Shown here piece by piece: positions 18,525 to 60,075 of a stretch of 64,000 nt of DNA. The position numbers and the translations under genes are program-made. Position 1 is the stretch's first letter. Every line of letters begins with the position of its first letter. This DNA comes from Dehalococcoidia bacterium. Lineage in GTDB: Bacteria > Chloroflexota > Dehalococcoidia > UBA2979. Below the pieces are notes generated by a model. It was not told the origin of the DNA and did not search any database. It saw nothing but the letters and a program-made list of their open reading frames with translations. The DNA lies in assembly GCA_965219085.1 (NCBI GenBank), contig OZ244720.1:1952001-2016000 (forward strand), written 5' to 3'.

Positions 18525-19495
18525 GCAGGGTGGCGCTGTCCCGGGACTCCGCTCCGGACAGGCTCGCTCAGCACGATGACCGTCGTCGCGCTCCCGGTGC
18601 TCGCGCCCACTCGCGGTCGGTCGCCGCCAGGCGGCCGCGTGCCGAGCCGCCGAACCACGTCTCGGCGCTAGATTCCCAGTTCGACTAGACTGTAGACAGG
18701 CGGGTCCTGAAGCTGGTCAACATCGTTGACGAGCACACGCGCGAGGCGCTGGCGATGGTGGCCGTGCAGGCGCATCGGCGCCGACGCCACCGCCTCAACG
18801 CTCGAGCGGATCGTGGCCTGGCGCGGGACGGCGCCTAGCAGGGTGCTGAAAAAGGCGCGGCCATCTGGCAGGATGGGGCTGGCGGCGGGGGCATAGCCTG
18901 GGAGGCAGCCCCGTGCGAGGTGACGCCGAGCGCCAGACCAACATGTTGCTGGCGGTGACGCCGGACTCGTTTGTCCCGGCCGAGCACCCGATCCGCCGCA
19001 TCAAGCCGATCGTCGACGCAGCGCTGGCCCGGCTCTCGCCGCTGTTCGACACGATGTACGCCAGGGGCGGCCGGCCCTCGATCCCGCCCGAGCACCTGCT
19101 CAAGGCGAGCCTGCTGATCGCGCTCTACTCGATCCGCAGCGAGCGCCAGTTCTGCGAGCGGCTGCGCTACGACCTGCTGTTCAAGTGGTTCTTGGACCTC
19201 AACATCTCAGACGAACCGTTCGATGCCTCGAGCTTCTCGAAGAACCGCGAGCGCCTGCTCGCAGCGGACGCCGCGCATGCCTTCTTCGCCGAGGTGGTGG
19301 CCGAGGCAAAGCGCCGCCGGCTGCTCTCCGCCGAGCACTGCACGGTGGACGGGACGCTGCTCGAGGCCTGGGCCTCACTCAAGAGATGGCATGAGGGCCG
19401 GTCTCTTCCTCAAGGGGGATACTCGCCCCCGAAACAGCGGCCTCGATGGGCCAGAACGGCTCTTTGCGGAGCTTTGACGAGGTAGGAGACCGGCC

Positions 19496-20584
19496 GTGCA
19501 GCAGGATACCGCAACGACGTGGAGCATTGAGGGCAAGGAAGGGTCAGGGGTCACCATCGGCCTCGACGTGGGCGACCGCTACACCCACGTCCACGCCCTC
19601 GGCGCCGGCGGGGAGGTGGTACGTGAGAGGCGCGTCCGCACCACGACGGCAGCGCTGGGCATGGTGCTGACCGGCCTCCCCCCATCGCGGGTCGTGATCG
19701 AGGCGGGGCCGCGCTCGCCGTGGCTGAGCCGCCTCATGGCGGACCTCGGCCACGAGGTGGTCGTCGCCAACCCGCGCCAGGTCGCGCTGATCGCCCGCAG
19801 CCAGCGCAAGACCGACCGGCTCGACGCCGAGTGGCTGGCGCGGCTGGGGCGCTTCGACCCCCAGTTGCTCGCCCCGATCCGCCACCGCAGCGAGGCGAGC
19901 CAGCACGACCTCGCCGTGGTGCGCGCCCGCGACGCGCTGGTGCGCTCGCGGACGCTGCTCATCAACCACGTGCGCGGGGCCGTCAAGGCCTGCGGAGCCG
20001 CGTTGCCGTCGTGCACGGCCGAGGCGTTCCACCGCAAGACGGCGGACCACATCCCCGACGGGCTGCGCCCGGCGCTGCTGCCGCTGGTGGAGGCGATCGG
20101 CGAGCTGACCGCGCGCATCGCGGCGGCCGGCCGCGAGATCGAGGCGTTGTGCGAGGCTCACTCCGAGACCGCGGCGCTGCGCCAGGTCACGGGCGTCGGG
20201 CCGATCACCGCGCTCACGTTCGTGCTGACGATCGAGGATCCTGGGCGCTTCCCGAAGAACCGCGAGGTCGGCGCCTACCTCGGGCTCGTGCCGAGGCAGC
20301 GCGACTCGGGCGAGCGCACGCCGCAACTCGGCATCGGCAAGAGCGGCGATCCGCACCTGCGGCGGCTGCTGGTGCAGGCCGCGCACTACATCCTCGGCCC
20401 CTTCGGGCCCGACACCGACCTCCGCCGCTGGGGTGAGCGCTACACCGCTACGGGGGCCGGTAACGCGAAGAAGCGCGCCGTCGTGGGCGTCGCGAGGCGG
20501 CTGGCGGTGCTGCTGCTCGCGCTGTGGAAGACCGGCGAGGTCTACGAGCCGTTGCGCGACGCCGCGGCGCAGGAGGCCGCGTAG
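19496..20584 (+). CDS. IS110-family DEDD recombinase/transposase
   Basis: IGLDVG, VVIEAG, KTDRLDA, GVGPITA, LGLVPRQRDSG. Confidence 0.95.
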   Translation: MQQDTATTWSIEGKEGSGVTIGLDVGDRYTHVHALGAGGEVVRERRVRTTTAALGMVLTGLPPSRVVIEAGPRSPWLSRLMADLGHEVVVANPRQVALIARSQRKTDRLDAEWLARLGRFDPQLLAPIRHRSEASQHDLAVVRARDALVRSRTLLINHVRGAVKACGAALPSCTAEAFHRKTADHIPDGLRPALLPLVEAIGELTARIAAAGREIEALCEAHSETAALRQVTGVGPITALTFVLTIEDPGRFPKNREVGAYLGLVPRQRDSGERTPQLGIGKSGDPHLRRLLVQAAHYILGPFGPDTDLRRWGERYTATGAGNAKKRAVVGVARRLAVLLLALWKTGEVYEPLRDAAAQEAA

Positions 20585-20908
20585 CAAGGCGCGGCGCCGA
20601 AGCAACCGACCAGGAGAGCGAGACTGAGACGGACCTGGGAGGAGGCCCAGCAAACCAACCACTGCACGTGATGCCGGGCAACGGGCGACTGCGAGGCGGT
20701 AGCGGTCCAACAAGGACGTTCAAGAGTTGGCAGCGCCCCCTGGAAGCAGGATGTGCCTTCATGCACCGGGCCCGATACGTGGCCCATCAAAGAGTGCGGA
20801 TAGAAGCTCGGCACAGGCTCCGTCAGGGGACATCACGAGCGGATCGGCCCCGATGTCGAGGAGCGCCACGCCCCGAGGAGGAAGCCGCCACGTCGGCCTT
20901 GCAGAAAG
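20585..20908 (+). ncRNA. Predicted bridge/seek RNA of the IS1111-type element
   Basis: Short segments match both sides of the actual target site and both sides of the circle junction (see findings); transcript limits unknown. Confidence 0.7.
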
Positions 20909-21819
20909 GTCGGGTAAGGGGCTGGCGCGGTACGAGCCGTAGGCAGTGGCGCTTATCCCGCCGGTTTCCCGCCGGTGCTCACTTCCACGTGCCGTAGCCA
21001 ACGCCCGTTTCCAGCCCCTCCCCTTCGAACCGTGCATGCGGTTCTCCCGCACACGGCTCACCGACGTCCTTCACCGGATGGCATTCGGCCCCGCCCGCCA
21101 CGCACGCTCCACAACGTCCCTGCGGTGGACTTTGTCGTAGAGCGCGTGAAAACGTCGCTCGGCTCGGCCTTGGCCGCCCGGTAGAGCGTGTGCTGTAGTT
21201 CTCGGACCTTTTGCTCGGCGGTTCTAGCCACGACGGGCACTCGCCAATCCTTCCCCAAGCTACACGCGCAGACGAAGTAGCGGCCCTTCCCTCACCGGCG
21301 GTTCTGTTGTCCGCTCGGCTCAATCGGTACTATGGCCGCCTCCGACTCCCTCCCGGCCGGCTACCCACTTCCCGGTTCGTCACCGGTTATAGGGCACCTC
21401 GCTCCGGCACCAATCCGCAGGCGCCGGACCGGGGAGGGCCTCCCCAGTTCCCGCCGTCACCTTCCACACGTTCCGCGCCCTCTACGCCGGGAGGTTCTTC
21501 GGGGTTGCGCCTCCAGGCTCTTCACCCCTTCCATGGCCTTCGCCCTGACGGCCGGGGCTCGGCTCCTCCTTGTTCCCACCATGCGGTGGGTATGTTCACG
21601 ACGCGGCAGACTTCGCTTCATGCTGCGGACCGCGTGGTCGCTCCCCCTCAAGGGCTTTCGACATCGGGCTCCGGCCCGGCCCGTTTCCAGACCCGACCGC
21701 CGATCTGCTACCGGGCCCCCTGGCAGTTACCCGGACCGGACTTTCACCGGTAGGCGACGACGAGCATGTCTCCGGACTGATCAGATCATTCTGCACCGTC
21801 CTTCGACTTCAGGGCGCAC
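20909..21819 (-). mobile_element. Group II intron (911 nt) with internally deleted RT ORF
   Basis: 5' GTGCG; ggtgaaagtcc domain I motif; domain V gagccgtgtgcgggagaaccgcatgcacggttcg; domain VI ending ..cccttacccgAC. Confidence 0.92.
21071..21240 (-). pseudogene. Vestigial group II intron-encoded protein
   Basis: KVRELQHTLYRAAKAEP / RRFHALYDKVHRRDVVERAW (RT N-terminal region, one frameshift) joined directly to ..PNAIR* just before domain V; no YADD. Confidence 0.8.
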
Positions 21820-22999
21820 ACCGTCCCTCATAGAAGCTACCGCCCGCGCGACGAGCAGGAGCCACCCCCGGGCGGACGCAACCCGGATGTCGACTTCCGC
21901 GGGCGGCGGCGCAGCCGCGATACGCATAGCTCCGGCACCGACCCGCAGGCGCGGCTGTACACAAAGGGAGCGGGGCAGACGGCGAAACTCAGCTACATGG
22001 GCCATCTGCTGACCGAGAACCGTCACGGTCTGGTGCTGGACGTGGAGTTGACCGAGGCGAACGGGTACGCCGAGCGCGAGGCGGCGGTCACGATGCTGGA
22101 GCGCAGCGTGAGCGGCTGCGGGACGCTGGGCGCCGACCGCGGCTACGACACGCGCGACTTCGTGGCGGAACTGCGCGCGCGCGGCGTGACGCCGCACGTG
22201 GCGCAAAACGACCGCGGCCGCCGCAGCGCCGTGGACGGGCGCACCACGCGGCATCGCGGCTACAGGCAGAGTCAGAAGCGACGCAAGATCGTGGAGCAGG
22301 TCTTCGGCTGGATGAAGACCGTGGGCGGCGGGCGCAAGCTGCGTTTCGTGGGCCGCGAGCGCAACCGCGGCTGGCTGGAGCTCACCGCCGCCGCCTACAA
22401 CCTCGTGCGCATGGCCAGGCTCGAACTCGCCCCTGCGTAGGCGCAGTGCGCCCTCCGGCCGGTCCGGGAGCCCTCAGAGGCCCCCGGGGGCAGGTCAGGA
22501 GGCCACCATCACGAACCCGGAGGCGGCCTCAAGCCGCCTCTCGCCACTCCGAGACCCCGGAAGGGCGCTTCTTCAGCACCCTGCTAGGTACATCCGTTGC
22601 GACAACGGGCCAGAGCTCGCGGCGAACCCGCTACGCGACCTGGTGCCGGTTCTCCAGCACTGGCAGCAACTACACCGAGCCCGGTGCGCCGTGGGAGAAC
22701 CCGTATGTCGAATCGTTCAACGGCCCGCTGCGCGACGAGTTCCTGGCTGTCAAGCACTTCGACAGCCTGCTCGATGCGCAGGTACTGATCGAGGGCTGGC
22801 GGATCGAGTACGGCACGAGTCGCCCGCATCGTAGCCTGGGCTGGCTCACCCCGGCGGCCTACGTCGAGCGCTGGGAGGCTCCGCAACATGCTCGACTCTC
22901 ATAAGTGGTGGTCTCGCGAGGAGGGTCCGGTCATCGGCATGCGAAGAGGTGGATCGGGGCCACAAGGAAGTCGTGTGGAACTCGCCGTCGGACCCGAAC

Positions 23000-24406
23000 T
23001 TACCGAGTGGAACGTTCGAGGTTCGGCGTGAGATCCACCGCTGTAGCCGTGAGCGCCGAGTACTCGCACCCATCACTACAGGGAGTGGTTCTCTGCACCT
23101 CCATGGTGCCAGGATAGCCATCGTAGGTCTGCGGGCCGATGCCGCCGATGCGAGGAGAGCCCGTCACGAGCCCGACAAGTTGGAGCACCTCGTGGGCGGC
23201 GACGCTCATGCTGAATGGGAAGACGTTCCGGCCCGAGAGCGCGGCCTTCTCCTCGTCGCTGAGTCCTTCGATGTAGTCAGGGTCGTCGAGTTTCCCTTCA
23301 CGATCGAGGGCGACATCGCTGCGTCGCAATTGGCCGAGGCAGACCATGCAAGCGCGGCCCGGACCGACAGTGTGGATCCGCCAGGCGACGTGCTGCGGGA
23401 TCCCATCGGACTTCACCCGTGCCATGATCCCGCCATCGATGATGGGGATGAGGTGGCTGTAGGCGAGAGCGTTGAGCAGGTGCCGCGGCCACGGCCGGTC
23501 GACGCAGGAGATGAGGACGTCGCAGTCGAGTGCGGCCGCCAGTCCTGCTGGCGAAAGCAAGCTCTGTGGGAACGGGCGCAGCTCGAGTTCGGTGGCGGTC
23601 GAACTCAGAACGGCGTTGCGCGCCGCCAATTGGACCTTGAGGAGACCCGCTTCGACATCGGCCCCTGTGGCACCGACCGTTCGATCGAGGTTCCGAAGTT
23701 CGAGCTTGTCGAAATCGATGTACGTCAGGCGCCGCACACCCATGCGGGCCAGCGCCTCGGCGACGAGGCTCCCCACGCTTCCGAGCCCGACGATGCCGAC
23801 GCGCGTGCGTACGAGTTGCTGCTGTGCAACCTCGCCCCACACGCTCACCGTCGCGACTTGACTGGCGGTCACGGTCGCACGGGCCTCATCAGGGTGGTAC
23901 GAGGTGGAGAGTTCTGAGCCCACTACGCGGACCGACCGGGCCCCCCGGCGCTCGAAAGTGCGTGGCGCCCGGCGGATCCAGAACCGGCCGCTCCATGCCC
24001 CATCCAGCGCCCGTGTGAGCCCGACGAGCGGCAAGCCCGTGCGGCCGAACACGGCACCTGCAATCCGGTCGCGCTCGGCTACCACATCGTCGTGGCTCAT
24101 CCCCTGCCAGCCGGCGTGAGGGTGCCCGTGCAGGAAGGCGACACCGCAGCCCTCGGGGATGTCGGACAGCACTCGCCGCAGGTACTGAGAATGGAACGAC
24201 ACGTTGCCGTGGAGGACTCGGTCCCCAGCTTCGGGGAAGACCAGTTCTGTAATGACGGCCGTGTGGCGGTGCTGCCCGACACTCGGCTTCCAGTATGCGA
24301 AGGCCAGGTCTTCCTGGCGCGCATCCTCGTGGAGGTGCCCCCTGAGCACCTGGTCGTGGTCGGCCGTCATCGCCACCGAGAGATCGAGCGCGGTGGCGTC
24401 GATCAT
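23000..24406 (-). CDS. JAB/JAMM peptidase - ThiF/E1-like adenylyltransferase fusion
   Basis: N-terminal QEDLAFA..LHGHP..MSHDD (JAMM); C-terminal GIVGLGSVGS, DFDKLELRNLDR, SCVD..R, CMVC..CSDGC. Confidence 0.9.
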   Translation of the reverse strand: MIDATALDLSVAMTADHDQVLRGHLHEDARQEDLAFAYWKPSVGQHRHTAVITELVFPEAGDRVLHGNVSFHSQYLRRVLSDIPEGCGVAFLHGHPHAGWQGMSHDDVVAERDRIAGAVFGRTGLPLVGLTRALDGAWSGRFWIRRAPRTFERRGARSVRVVGSELSTSYHPDEARATVTASQVATVSVWGEVAQQQLVRTRVGIVGLGSVGSLVAEALARMGVRRLTYIDFDKLELRNLDRTVGATGADVEAGLLKVQLAARNAVLSSTATELELRPFPQSLLSPAGLAAALDCDVLISCVDRPWPRHLLNALAYSHLIPIIDGGIMARVKSDGIPQHVAWRIHTVGPGRACMVCLGQLRRSDVALDREGKLDDPDYIEGLSDEEKAALSGRNVFPFSMSVAAHEVLQLVGLVTGSPRIGGIGPQTYDGYPGTMEVQRTTPCSDGCEYSALTATAVDLTPNLERSTR

Positions 24407-24777
24407 GCCACTGGCCACCGGTCGTCGCAGAGGACAGTGAGAATGTGTGCCCAGAGGCCGCGCGGCGTCGGGCGGTGGTCGTAGCGCCGGCTCCAGTACA
24501 GTCAGTCGGGGCCGATCCCGCTCTCCATGGTCTTCAGCGGCTCGCTCCCGTCCATGGGGACTAGGTGAGGGCGGGTGTGGATGGCCGGCGGCACCACGTA
24601 GGGGGCCGCGTCGACACGCTGGATGGCGACATCGCAGCGCCGACCGCGCAAGGCACCGCTCGGCAGTTCGAAGTCGCGAACCACCGAGTAGTTGTTCCCG
24701 TCGTCGCCGCTGAGAACCTCAGCGGTGAGACCGAGGCCCCGGACGTATTCCTCGAAGTCGTCGGCGGTCATCGTCAC
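24403..24777 (-). CDS. Prokaryotic E2-like protein, with in-frame TGA at 24504-24502
   Basis: DFELPSG..DVAI..PYVVPPAIH..GPD*LYWSRRYD..LWAHILTVL; start and stop overlap the Ubl and E1 genes. Confidence 0.65.
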
Positions 24778-58364: not shown

Positions 58365-60075
58365 GCCGCATCTCCCGCGAGCGCTACGCCGCGCTCTACG
58401 GCCCCACGACCGGCGACCGCTTCCGCCCCGCCGACACGCAGCTGATCTGGCGCGTCGAGCATGACCACGCCGTACTCGGCGAGGAGGCCGTGTTCGGCGG
58501 GGGCAAGACGATCCGCGATGGCATGGCGCAGGCGCCACGCATGACCGCCGCGGGCGGCAGTCCCGACCTCGTGATCACGAGTGCGCTGATCCTCGATCCC
58601 GTGCTCGGCGTGATCAAGGGCGACATCGTCGTCAAGGATGGGCGGATCGCGGCCATCGGCAAGGCCGGAAAACCCCGACATCATGGACGGCGTCGACCCC
58701 GCGCTCGTGATCGGGCCGGGTACCGAGGTCATCGCCGGCGAGCACATGATCGCGACGCCCGGCGGCGTCGACAGCCACATCCACATGATCGCGCCGCAGC
58801 AGGCGTGGGCCGCCCTCTCGAACGGCATCACGACGATGCTCGGCGGCGCCGCCGGCCCCGCCGACGGCACGCGCGCCACCACCACCACGCCCGGCCCGTG
58901 GAACATCGCGCGCATGCTCGAGGCCGCCGAGACCATGCCCGTGAACTGGGGCCTCTTCGCGAAGGCGAACGCCTCGGACGTGGCGGCGATCGCCGAGCAG
59001 GTCGCGGCCTGCGCGCTCAAGGTCCACGAGGACTGGGGCTCGTCCCCCGCCGTGATCGACGCCGCGCTCCGCGCCGCGGATGAGTACGACGTGCAGCTGG
59101 CGATCCACACCGACACCCTCAACGAGAGGGGCTTCGTCGAGGACACCATCGCCGCGATCGCGGGCCGCACGATCCACACGTTCCACACCGAGGGCGCGGG
59201 CGGCGGTCACGCTCCGGACATCCTCCGCCTCGCCGGCGAGCCGAACGTGCTCCCTTTGAGCACCAACCCGACTCGCCCCTACACGGTGAACACGCTGGCC
59301 GAGCACATGGACATGCTCATGGTCTGCCATCACCTCAACCCGCAGGTCCCCGAGGACGTCGCCTTCGCCGACAGCCGCATCCGCCCCGAGACGATGGCCG
59401 CCGAGGATGTCGTCCACGACGTGGGCGTACTGAGCATGTACTCGTCGGACTCGCAGGCGATGGGCCGCGCCGGCGAGAACTTCACGCGCCTGATCCAGAC
59501 CGCCGACAAGATGAAGCAGGTGCGCGGCCCGCTGCCCGAGGACGCCGCGGGCGACGACAACGCCCGCGTCCTCCGCTACATCGCCAAGCTCACCATCAAC
59601 CCCGCCCGCACCCACGGCATCGCGCACGAGGTTGGCAGCCTCGAGACCGGCAAGCTCGCCGACATCGTGCTGTGGCCGACGCAGTTCTTCGGTGCGAAGC
59701 CCGCGCTCGTCGTCAAGGGCGGCATGATCGCGTGGTTCGTGATGGGCGAGCCGAACGCCTCGATCCCGACGGTCGAGCCGGTCATCTACCGCCCGATGTT
59801 CGGCGCACACCCCTCCGTGATCCCGGCGACCAGCGTCACCTTCCTCAGCTAGGCCACGCTGGATCGCGGCGTGGCCGGGGCGCTCGGCCTGCGGTGTCGC
59901 ATCGCCGTCAGCAGGAACAATCGTGCGCTCACCAAGGCCGACATGCTCCGCAATGACGCCCTCCGGGCGATCGATGTCGATCCCGAGACCTACGAGGTGC
60001 GCGACGATGGCGAGGTCGTCACCTCGCCCCCCGCAGAGACCCTCGCGCTGTCCCAGCGCTACTTCCCTGGTCTAG
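58361..60075 (+). pseudogene. ureC: Urease alpha subunit (frameshift near 58670, in-frame TAG at 59850)
   Basis: [53 protein letters not shown]. Confidence 0.92.

Follow-up and report, generated by a model that had tools for sequence, protein, structure and literature searches.

A group II intron without its reverse transcriptase in the right repeat of an IS1111-type element: probable homing to the repeat and carriage as cargo

How does a group II intron that has lost its reverse transcriptase (RT) come to lie inside the repeat of a transposon, and can it still move? Group II introns of bacteria are known in other mobile DNA, and derivatives without an open reading frame (ORF) are known but rare. 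The locus that raises the question lies in a 64,000-nt stretch (hereafter the window) of a Dehalococcoidia bacterium genome (G000; the window is G000:C1:1952001-2016000). There, an ORF-less group II intron of 911 nt (20909..21819, minus strand), recognized from Rfam matches, intron-free copies and its fold, interrupts the right end of an IS1111-type insertion sequence (IS) of the IS110 family (19386..21834 with the intron, plus strand). We consider it likely that this non-autonomous intron homed to the right repeat of IS1111-type elements by means of an RT provided in trans and was afterwards carried as IS cargo.

The intron boundaries are fixed by intron-free copies of the same IS. A BLAST search of G000 returned five IS copies (A to E) that are 99.7-100% identical, together with six of 85-87% identity. 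The intron, the same 911 nt in both cases, is present in A (the window copy) and B. It is missing from C, D and E, where ...TTGCAGAAAG runs straight into ACCGTCCCTCAT. The preliminary description of this DNA had written out the sequence expected when 20909-21819 is removed and had proposed a search for intron-free copies. Such copies exist, three of them in the same genome, so that three of the five near-identical IS copies carry exactly the rejoined sequence. On the minus strand, the intron begins with GTGCG at 21819 and ends with ...CCCGAC at 20909, in agreement with the GUGYG/AY rule.

The host IS is itself nested in an IS5/IS1182-like transposase gene, the left part of which (18913..19385, plus strand) matches Pfam DUF772 at 79 bits and the right part (21835..22440, plus strand) DDE_Tnp_1 at 60.3 bits. 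Six uninterrupted IS5-like copies in G000 read GCTCAAGAGCTACC at the insertion point. These empty sites, GCTCAAG[AG]CTACC (n=6), put the IS ends at 19386 and 21834, with a 2-nt ambiguity due to the AG core when filled and empty sites are compared. The IS encodes an intact DEDD transposase of 362 aa (19496..20584, plus strand; PF01548, 69.9 bits; PF02371, 72.2 bits), flanked by 110 nt of non-coding sequence upstream and 324 nt downstream. The left subterminal inverted repeat, ATGAGGGCCGGTCT (19391..19404, plus strand), matches the right arm, ATGAGGGACGGTCT (20906-20908 and 21820-21831, reconstituted after intron removal), at 13 of 14 positions. The preliminary description had placed the intron in an inverted repeat at the IS end. 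The right arm is indeed restored by intron removal, but the empty sites place the IS ends beyond the repeat, which is thus subterminal, with its arms 5 nt and 3 nt inside the two ends. The intron separates repeat positions 12 and 13, at a distance of 15-17 nt from the right IS end and about 100 nt downstream of the donor-guide segments; it lies in the non-coding right end and, as had been stated, antisense to the transposase.

The 3' non-coding region (20585..20908, plus strand) contains putative seekRNA/bridge-RNA-like guides. From the alignment of IS variants, we assigned putative target guides to 20696-20730 and putative donor guides to 20781-20807 (plus strand). Across six IS variants, two guide segments vary together with the flanking target and two donor-like segments are constant: the guide pair GGTAGC/TTCAAGAG goes with the target CTCAAG-AG-CTACC, and the pair CACCCACT/CGGCAGAG with ..GGCAG-AG-TGGGTG. 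The Rfam scan gave no match for a guide RNA in this region, the guides being read from DNA alone. Subterminal repeats and a 3' non-coding region encoding a seekRNA are described as marks of the IS1111 family (PMC11187229). Because the subterminal repeats and the 3' non-coding region match these marks, we regard as sound the assignment, made from sequence, of the host with its DEDD domains to the IS1111-type elements, and as putative its guidance by a seekRNA/bridge RNA.

Is the intron still a ribozyme? Scanning against Rfam with cmscan (cut-offs of 49 bits for RF02003 and 40 bits for RF00029) detected the domain I core (D1D4-4; 21618..21753, minus strand; RF02003, 95.1 bits, E = 8e-20) and the domain V and VI (D5/D6) region (20909..21061, minus strand; RF00029, 44.8 bits). 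The identity as a group II intron, for which the preliminary description had suggested an Infernal search, is thereby confirmed. By the RF00029 alignment and the fold, D5 (21027..21059, minus strand) is the usual bulged hairpin: it has an AGC triad and a bulge of 2 nt, and its terminal loop is of five bases (in the fold, GAGAA). The extended D6 (20909..21024, minus strand) folds with a minimum free energy of -83.8 kcal/mol (z-score -5.07), and its branch-point A, at 20915 and thus 7 nt from the 3' splice site, is bulged.

Intron relatives at differing sites were aligned from genomes G015, G022, G031, G032 and G111, together with a third, broken copy in G000. The RNAalifold consensus of the first 630 nt of the intron and six relatives (seven sequences) has 177 pairs, with compensatory changes at 31. 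The window intron retains 172 of the 177 pairs and has 10 private substitutions in otherwise invariant columns, the lowest number in the set (others, 11-19). By both measures the ribozyme looks as intact as in the protein-encoding relatives, and it is IIB-like, with exon-binding site 1 (EBS1) and a probable site 2 (EBS2) both present. An RNA unable to fold domains I-VI had been named beforehand as a sign of a dead intron; the D5/D6 fold and the covariation in domains I-III indicate that this one folds.

These data bear on the idea that the intron is a dead fossil, a decaying remnant without any activity, ribozyme included. The idea would fit the deleted and frameshifted intron-encoded protein (IEP), the antisense position to every neighbouring gene, which makes splicing unneeded, and the lack of D5 in the third G000 copy (C1:3165839-3166340). 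It is hard to reconcile with helices preserved as in IEP-bearing relatives, with the fewest private changes, and with copies in three species that differ by only 0-4 nt in 911, which indicates recent spread. We consider a fossil improbable.

The protein itself is lost. The IEP ORF remnant in domain IV (21071..21231, minus strand) was delimited by alignment with a full-length relative in G032 of about 2,073 nt, whose protein shows just two Pfam domains, RVT_1 (134 bits) and GIIM (42.6 bits). The remnant consists of the N-terminal ~45 codons (..RRFHALYDKV..ERAW), followed directly by the final eight codons with their original TGA. The internal deletion occurred at a CGTGG microhomology (21089-21109), leaving the junction ...RRFHALYDKVHRRDVVERAW fused to the last eight IEP codons, and a 1-nt frameshift lies further upstream. 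The earlier figure of ~55 codons was right (we count ~53), and so was the designation as non-autonomous, since the RT ORF is both internally deleted and frameshifted.

A separate case of ORF loss was seen in G111 (L021, L024, L025), where twintron-like nests hold an 862-nt ORF-less intron inside the IEP ORF of a related intron, within the RT-domain coding sequence (..CFESIP..). Its deletion breakpoint is unlike that of the window intron. The differing breakpoints imply that the ORF was lost at least twice in this intron family.

If the intron homes to the repeat, its RNA should recognize the repeat, and the pairing is consistent with this. EBS1 (GCCGUC; 21547..21552, minus strand), validated by its covariation with exon positions -1 to -6, is part of a 9-nt hairpin loop (hairpin 21542-21558), as the preliminary description had it. 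Probable EBS2 (ACAUA; 21591..21595, minus strand) was read by eye from alignment columns. The 5' exon of the intron on the minus strand is formed by the outer 12 nt of the right repeat and the IS terminus (21820..21834 in plus-strand numbering), and holds the intron-binding sites IBS1 (21820-21825) and IBS2 (21829-21832). The right-arm target of the intron is GAAAGACCGTCCCTCATAGAAG; the left-arm version has C at position -5.

GCCGTC pairs with GACGGT at 6/6 positions, including one G-U pair. The loop/exon pairing keeps a constant register, with exon -1 opposite loop position 3. Cognate loop/exon combinations (n=10) have 4.7/6 pairs, 4.5 of them contiguous from -1, against 2.3/6 pairs and 0.71 contiguous in non-cognate combinations (n=86), only 3.5% of which reach at least four contiguous pairs. 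The window intron with the IS repeat, at 6/6, is the best of the ten. EBS2 here pairs at 4/5 positions (CAUA with UAUG, by eye), and its columns pair 5/5 with exon -13 to -9 in three relatives (G032, G111a-c and G111a2; by eye). No EBS3 or delta could be assigned, since every relative has G as the second base of the loop, and C or T is the first base of the 3' exons observed. The sole mismatch between the two repeat arms is at IBS1 position -5, which makes the left arm the poorer target and fits the use of the right arm only. The proposal that the intron targets the ends of IS110/IS1111 elements thus gains from the EBS1 covariation, from the full match to the repeat and from the same position being occupied in diverged IS relatives, described below.

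Was the repeat entered once or repeatedly? We scanned one genome per species for the exact 26-mer around EBS1 and found two further records, G015 and G123; the same 26-mer had no match in the metagenome contigs. G123, from another species, carries the intron at 99.89% identity (one difference in 911 nt) at exactly the same repeat position, with the junctions ...TTGCGGAAAG/intron/ACCGTCCCTCATAGAAG and IBS1 pairing at 6/6. Its host IS is only 85% identical to the window IS in the transposase part and 80% in the last 107 nt, and is located in an IS21-like element or gene, a target that differs from the one in the window. G015 belongs to a different species within the genus; its copy of the intron, at 99.56% identity, is antisense to a GT2-type glycosyltransferase gene and located in the 3' portion of that gene, at ...AGCGGC/C. 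Copies in unrelated targets with no EBS1 match would have counted against the targeting proposal; this copy, the only one in an unrelated target, retains 5/6 EBS1 pairs.

Contigs from sequencing runs add a third right-end variant. Contigs of 20 of 24 runs, from eight studies, cover at least part of the stretch; uncovered parts (20600-20881 in X15, 20600-20693 in X6 and 20600-20646 in X10) are uninformative. An X15 contig, from an RNA-labelled library, joins the intron 3' end to a third right-end variant, with the 5' exon unseen; cover of the intron by contigs from such a library is no demonstration of transcription. The intron-free joint, with the 911 nt skipped, occurs in X1, X6 and X10, with sides of only 19-20 letters that may come from IS copies of other organisms. 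Four sites are known in all: the IS in G000 (two sister copies), the IS in G123, the IS variant in X15 and the gene in G015.

These sites can be set against a single chance insertion, with no preference for IS ends and with every other occurrence arising by IS transposition, horizontal transfer or right-end recombination. Such a history accommodates the clear sister relationship of copies A and B, the want of an IEP to support repeated homing, and the 48 empty targets in the genus against two occupied junctions. We nevertheless give it little credence. The G123 intron is nearly identical to ours while the adjoining IS has diverged to 80% over 107 nt, and the outer flank of 15-17 nt of IS is too short for homologous exchange, the inner side being diverged as well. 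The G015 copy must have moved as an intron, because it is located outside any IS. Independent insertion in G123 is the simplest reading of these sequences. Homing to the right repeat therefore stays our preferred explanation; the repeat would have served as a target on at least two and probably three occasions, the G015 copy being a single ectopic event, and the 0-4 nt differences among the three species suggest that the spread was recent.

One-mismatch junctions in G019 and G071 were considered as left-repeat insertions and rejected as chance matches: no intron was found there by Rfam, and none follows GTGCG. Within the G123 IS, we also noticed an extra insertion of 1.28 kb (L031 3152-4432) in the 3' non-coding region. 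It holds a 362-aa ORF, the length of the IS transposase, and may be a nested IS110-type element.

Did the intron also travel with the IS? Over IS and intron, A and B do not differ at all (100% identity), and both depart from C, D and E at the same two nucleotides (IS positions 1037 and 1498). To the left, A and B are flanked by different IS5-like copies, with 94% identity over 553 nt and no homology beyond, and the transposase ORF is intact in all five copies. Sister copies with different flanks point to a single insertion, after which the IS was copied, intron included, into another target, and the hitch-hiking that the preliminary description had anticipated finds support here. The intron-bearing IS appears to have transposed with the intron as cargo.

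Several further features of the IS family were recorded. Variants F, G, H, I and J (C1:1936790, 1259824, 891788, 340400 and 2848479), at 85-87% identity, have different flanking targets and matching changes in two 3' non-coding segments; copy I has F-type guide segments, yet is located in a window-type IS5-like target. Downstream of copies G and J, parts of the IS right end recur in tandem (C1:1261314-1261394 and 2850004-2850740), each ending in the same 22-nt terminal sequence, with five terminal motifs in succession at copy J. Among the IS5-like elements, five other copies (e.g. G000:C1:1801610-1803107) have a ~1.5 kb insertion at the site homologous to window 21966, which the window copy lacks.

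Taking these results together, we propose the following course of events. The homing site would lie at the inner border of the right-hand subterminal repeat in a family of IS1111-type, putatively guided IS. The intron RNA would recognize the repeat strand antisense to the transposase, through EBS1 (GCCGUC-GACGGU) and EBS2 (CAUA-UAUG), and reverse-splice 15-17 nt from the IS end, sparing the donor core and the guide RNA region. These insertions would have depended on an RT supplied in trans. The intron-bearing IS would then have transposed between IS5-like copies with the intron as cargo, and the intron in G000 would now be stranded, moving only as a passenger of the IS.

Where did the RT come from? 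The search for a full-length IEP donor, also suggested beforehand, came out negative in the three intron-holding genomes. Assembly completeness is 93% for G000 and G015, with no figure for G123, and plasmids may be absent from the assemblies. The RT found in G000 (C1:3112800-3114400) is truncated and frameshifted, belongs to another lineage (40% identical) and lacks D5; G015 has five full-length copies of that same lineage, 40% identical to the G032 IEP, and G123 has none. The G015 copies were considered as a possible heterologous driver. The G000 intron concerned has an RT frame of 497 aa, with the maturase part in another frame, and is inserted in an apparent transposase gene. Contigs of X6 and X15 continue past the deletion point of the window intron into ...GQVRRNRGAA (~91% identical), so full-length relatives are present in the same communities, not necessarily in the same cells. 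We infer that the RT was supplied in trans and is now absent from the three intron-holding genomes. According to PMC4424553, ORF-less introns of bacteria nearly always co-occur with a related IEP in the genome; the missing cognate RT departs from this pattern and is unusual.

Several observations weigh against homing followed by carriage, and we set them out together. Foremost is the lack of a cognate IEP in G000, G015 and G123. Occupancy is also very low. Searching 19 genomes of the genus for the 22-nt target with at most one mismatch, we counted 48 empty targets in six of them (G000, 12; G015, 8; G004, 3; G012, 6; G017, 6; G013, 13), and the occupied junction was found twice in 99 genomes of the family, both times in G000. 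Such numbers imply that homing is not active now. The third right-end variant in X15 is supported by 28 loose letters of one contig. Finally, copy B is without the right half of its IS5-like host, which implies a further rearrangement in its history.

We also thought of a stronger version, in which the RT-less lineage is a dedicated cross-species parasite of IS1111-type transposons, with the conserved right repeat as homing site and the IS as its means of transport inside and among genomes, borrowing the RT transiently from relatives in the community and throttling its carrier by displacing TTGCAG. This seems to us rather unlikely.

What does the insertion do to the IS? The box TTGCAG (20899..20904, plus strand), for which every aligned IS variant has TTGC(A/G)G, is the proposed -35 of a promoter at the circle junction, and would lie 17 nt upstream of the GAAGAT that the junction would form (by eye). 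Junction promoters have been described for IS1111-type elements (PMC11187229). In the preliminary description the box was thought to be restored when the intron is removed; the box does exist, but the intron has not split it, only moved it 911 nt from the IS end. TTGCAG (against TTGACA) and GAAGAT each match the sigma-70 consensus at 3/6 positions, and a promoter scan of 20560-23100 found no site, either for the intron strand or for the junction. That the intron disables the junction promoter is possible but unsupported.

From here one could argue that the intron restrains the IS: with TTGCAG displaced 911 nt from the circle junction, transposase and guide RNA would be expressed less, and the intron would be kept because it tames the IS, in the manner of RmInt1, which was proposed to limit ISRm2011-2 (PMC4238363). 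The conserved hexamer at its 17-nt spacing and the described junction promoters lend this some appeal. Against it stand the poor consensus match and empty promoter scan, the apparent transposition of the intron-bearing IS regardless, and an occupancy far too low for a benefit at host level, and we find it highly improbable. The intron leaves the guide segments, the transposase and 12 of the 14 terminal-repeat bases untouched, and ISEc11 is reported to have remained mobile when 745 bp of cargo were inserted 46 bp from the right end (PMC11187229).

To the right of the locus, window 22590-22904 (plus strand) holds a C-terminal fragment of an IS3-type integrase (by eye). A 472-aa ORF at 23000-24418 (minus strand; by eye) lies on the intron strand, 1.2 kb upstream of the intron, and could supply read-through transcription into it. 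Elsewhere in the window, an Rfam match to 5_ureB_sRNA at 58647-58802 (minus strand; 52.3 bits, cut-off 40) has non-canonical pairs and 70% GC, and is probably spurious.

Is residence in mobile DNA peculiar to this intron? The third G000 copy (L015) has 86% identity over positions 1-477, which run directly into the final 27 nt, D4-D5 being lost. Its EBS1 loop, GUCCCU, fits the IS256-like terminal repeat ..TTGCAGGGA/CGTGACC, and its lineage homes 7 nt inside this repeat in G000, G031 and an X15 contig, with nine empty sites in G000. The G032 relative lies in sense orientation in an IS256-type transposase gene, and the G111b and G111c relatives antisense in one (motifs by eye). Sister lineages that reside in mobile DNA fit the retroelement behaviour described for bacterial group II introns (PMC4424553, PMC4238363, PMC2882425).

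To the known ORF-less and IS-resident introns, this locus would add homing to a site within the subterminal repeat of a putative seekRNA/bridge-RNA IS; a literature search returned no description of such a site. It also presents an ORF-less intron that was apparently mobile recently in three species, with no cognate RT found in any of them. For the IS, it is a natural experiment, in that an element appears to have transposed while bearing 911 nt of cargo at 15-17 nt from its right end; if the IS did move with the intron, very little right-end sequence would be needed in cis by this class of programmable recombinase. The three-level nest (intron in IS1111-type in IS5-like element), with one mobile element as the passenger of another, could help in dating the invasions by mobile elements and in working out their order.

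How does the system compare with known ones? Among IS elements, the host resembles ISEc11 and other IS1111 seekRNA elements in its DEDD transposase, subterminal repeats, putative 3' guide region, site-specific insertion and tolerance of right-end cargo (PMC11187229). It differs in that the cargo in the G000 IS is a natural ribozyme retroelement, 15-17 nt from the end and inside the repeat. Insertion into another IS has a counterpart in ISEc21, an IS110-type element that targets the transposase gene of another IS (PMC11187229).

Among ORF-less introns, TeI3 of Thermosynechococcus elongatus shares the internal D4 deletion, the N- and C-terminal ORF remnants and a frameshift; unlike the window intron, it has driver IEPs in the same genome and 17 ORF-less copies (PMC2882425), whereas we found no cognate IEP in three host genomes and one to two copies per genome. 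C.te.I1 of Clostridium tetani is the sole ORF-less bacterial intron named in PMC4424553 as having no related IEP in its genome, and in this it is like the window intron. However, C.te.I1 lies in a gene context with alternative splicing, and the window intron in mobile DNA, with signs of recent insertions at several sites. The nested introns of Methanosarcina acetivorans home into the ORFs of related introns (PMC4424553), as do the sister lineages in G111; the window intron targets an IS repeat, not another intron.

The closest parallel in behaviour is RmInt1 with ISRm2011-2 in S. meliloti, a IIB-like bacterial intron that has an IS as its homing site and travels with it, and whose IEP lacks an endonuclease domain, as in the relatives of the window intron (PMC4238363). 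RmInt1, however, encodes its own IEP and lies in sense orientation inside an IS630-type transposase ORF, so that splicing is needed for the transposase (PMC4238363), whereas the window intron has no RT and lies antisense in the non-coding subterminal repeat of a DEDD, putatively guide-RNA-directed IS.

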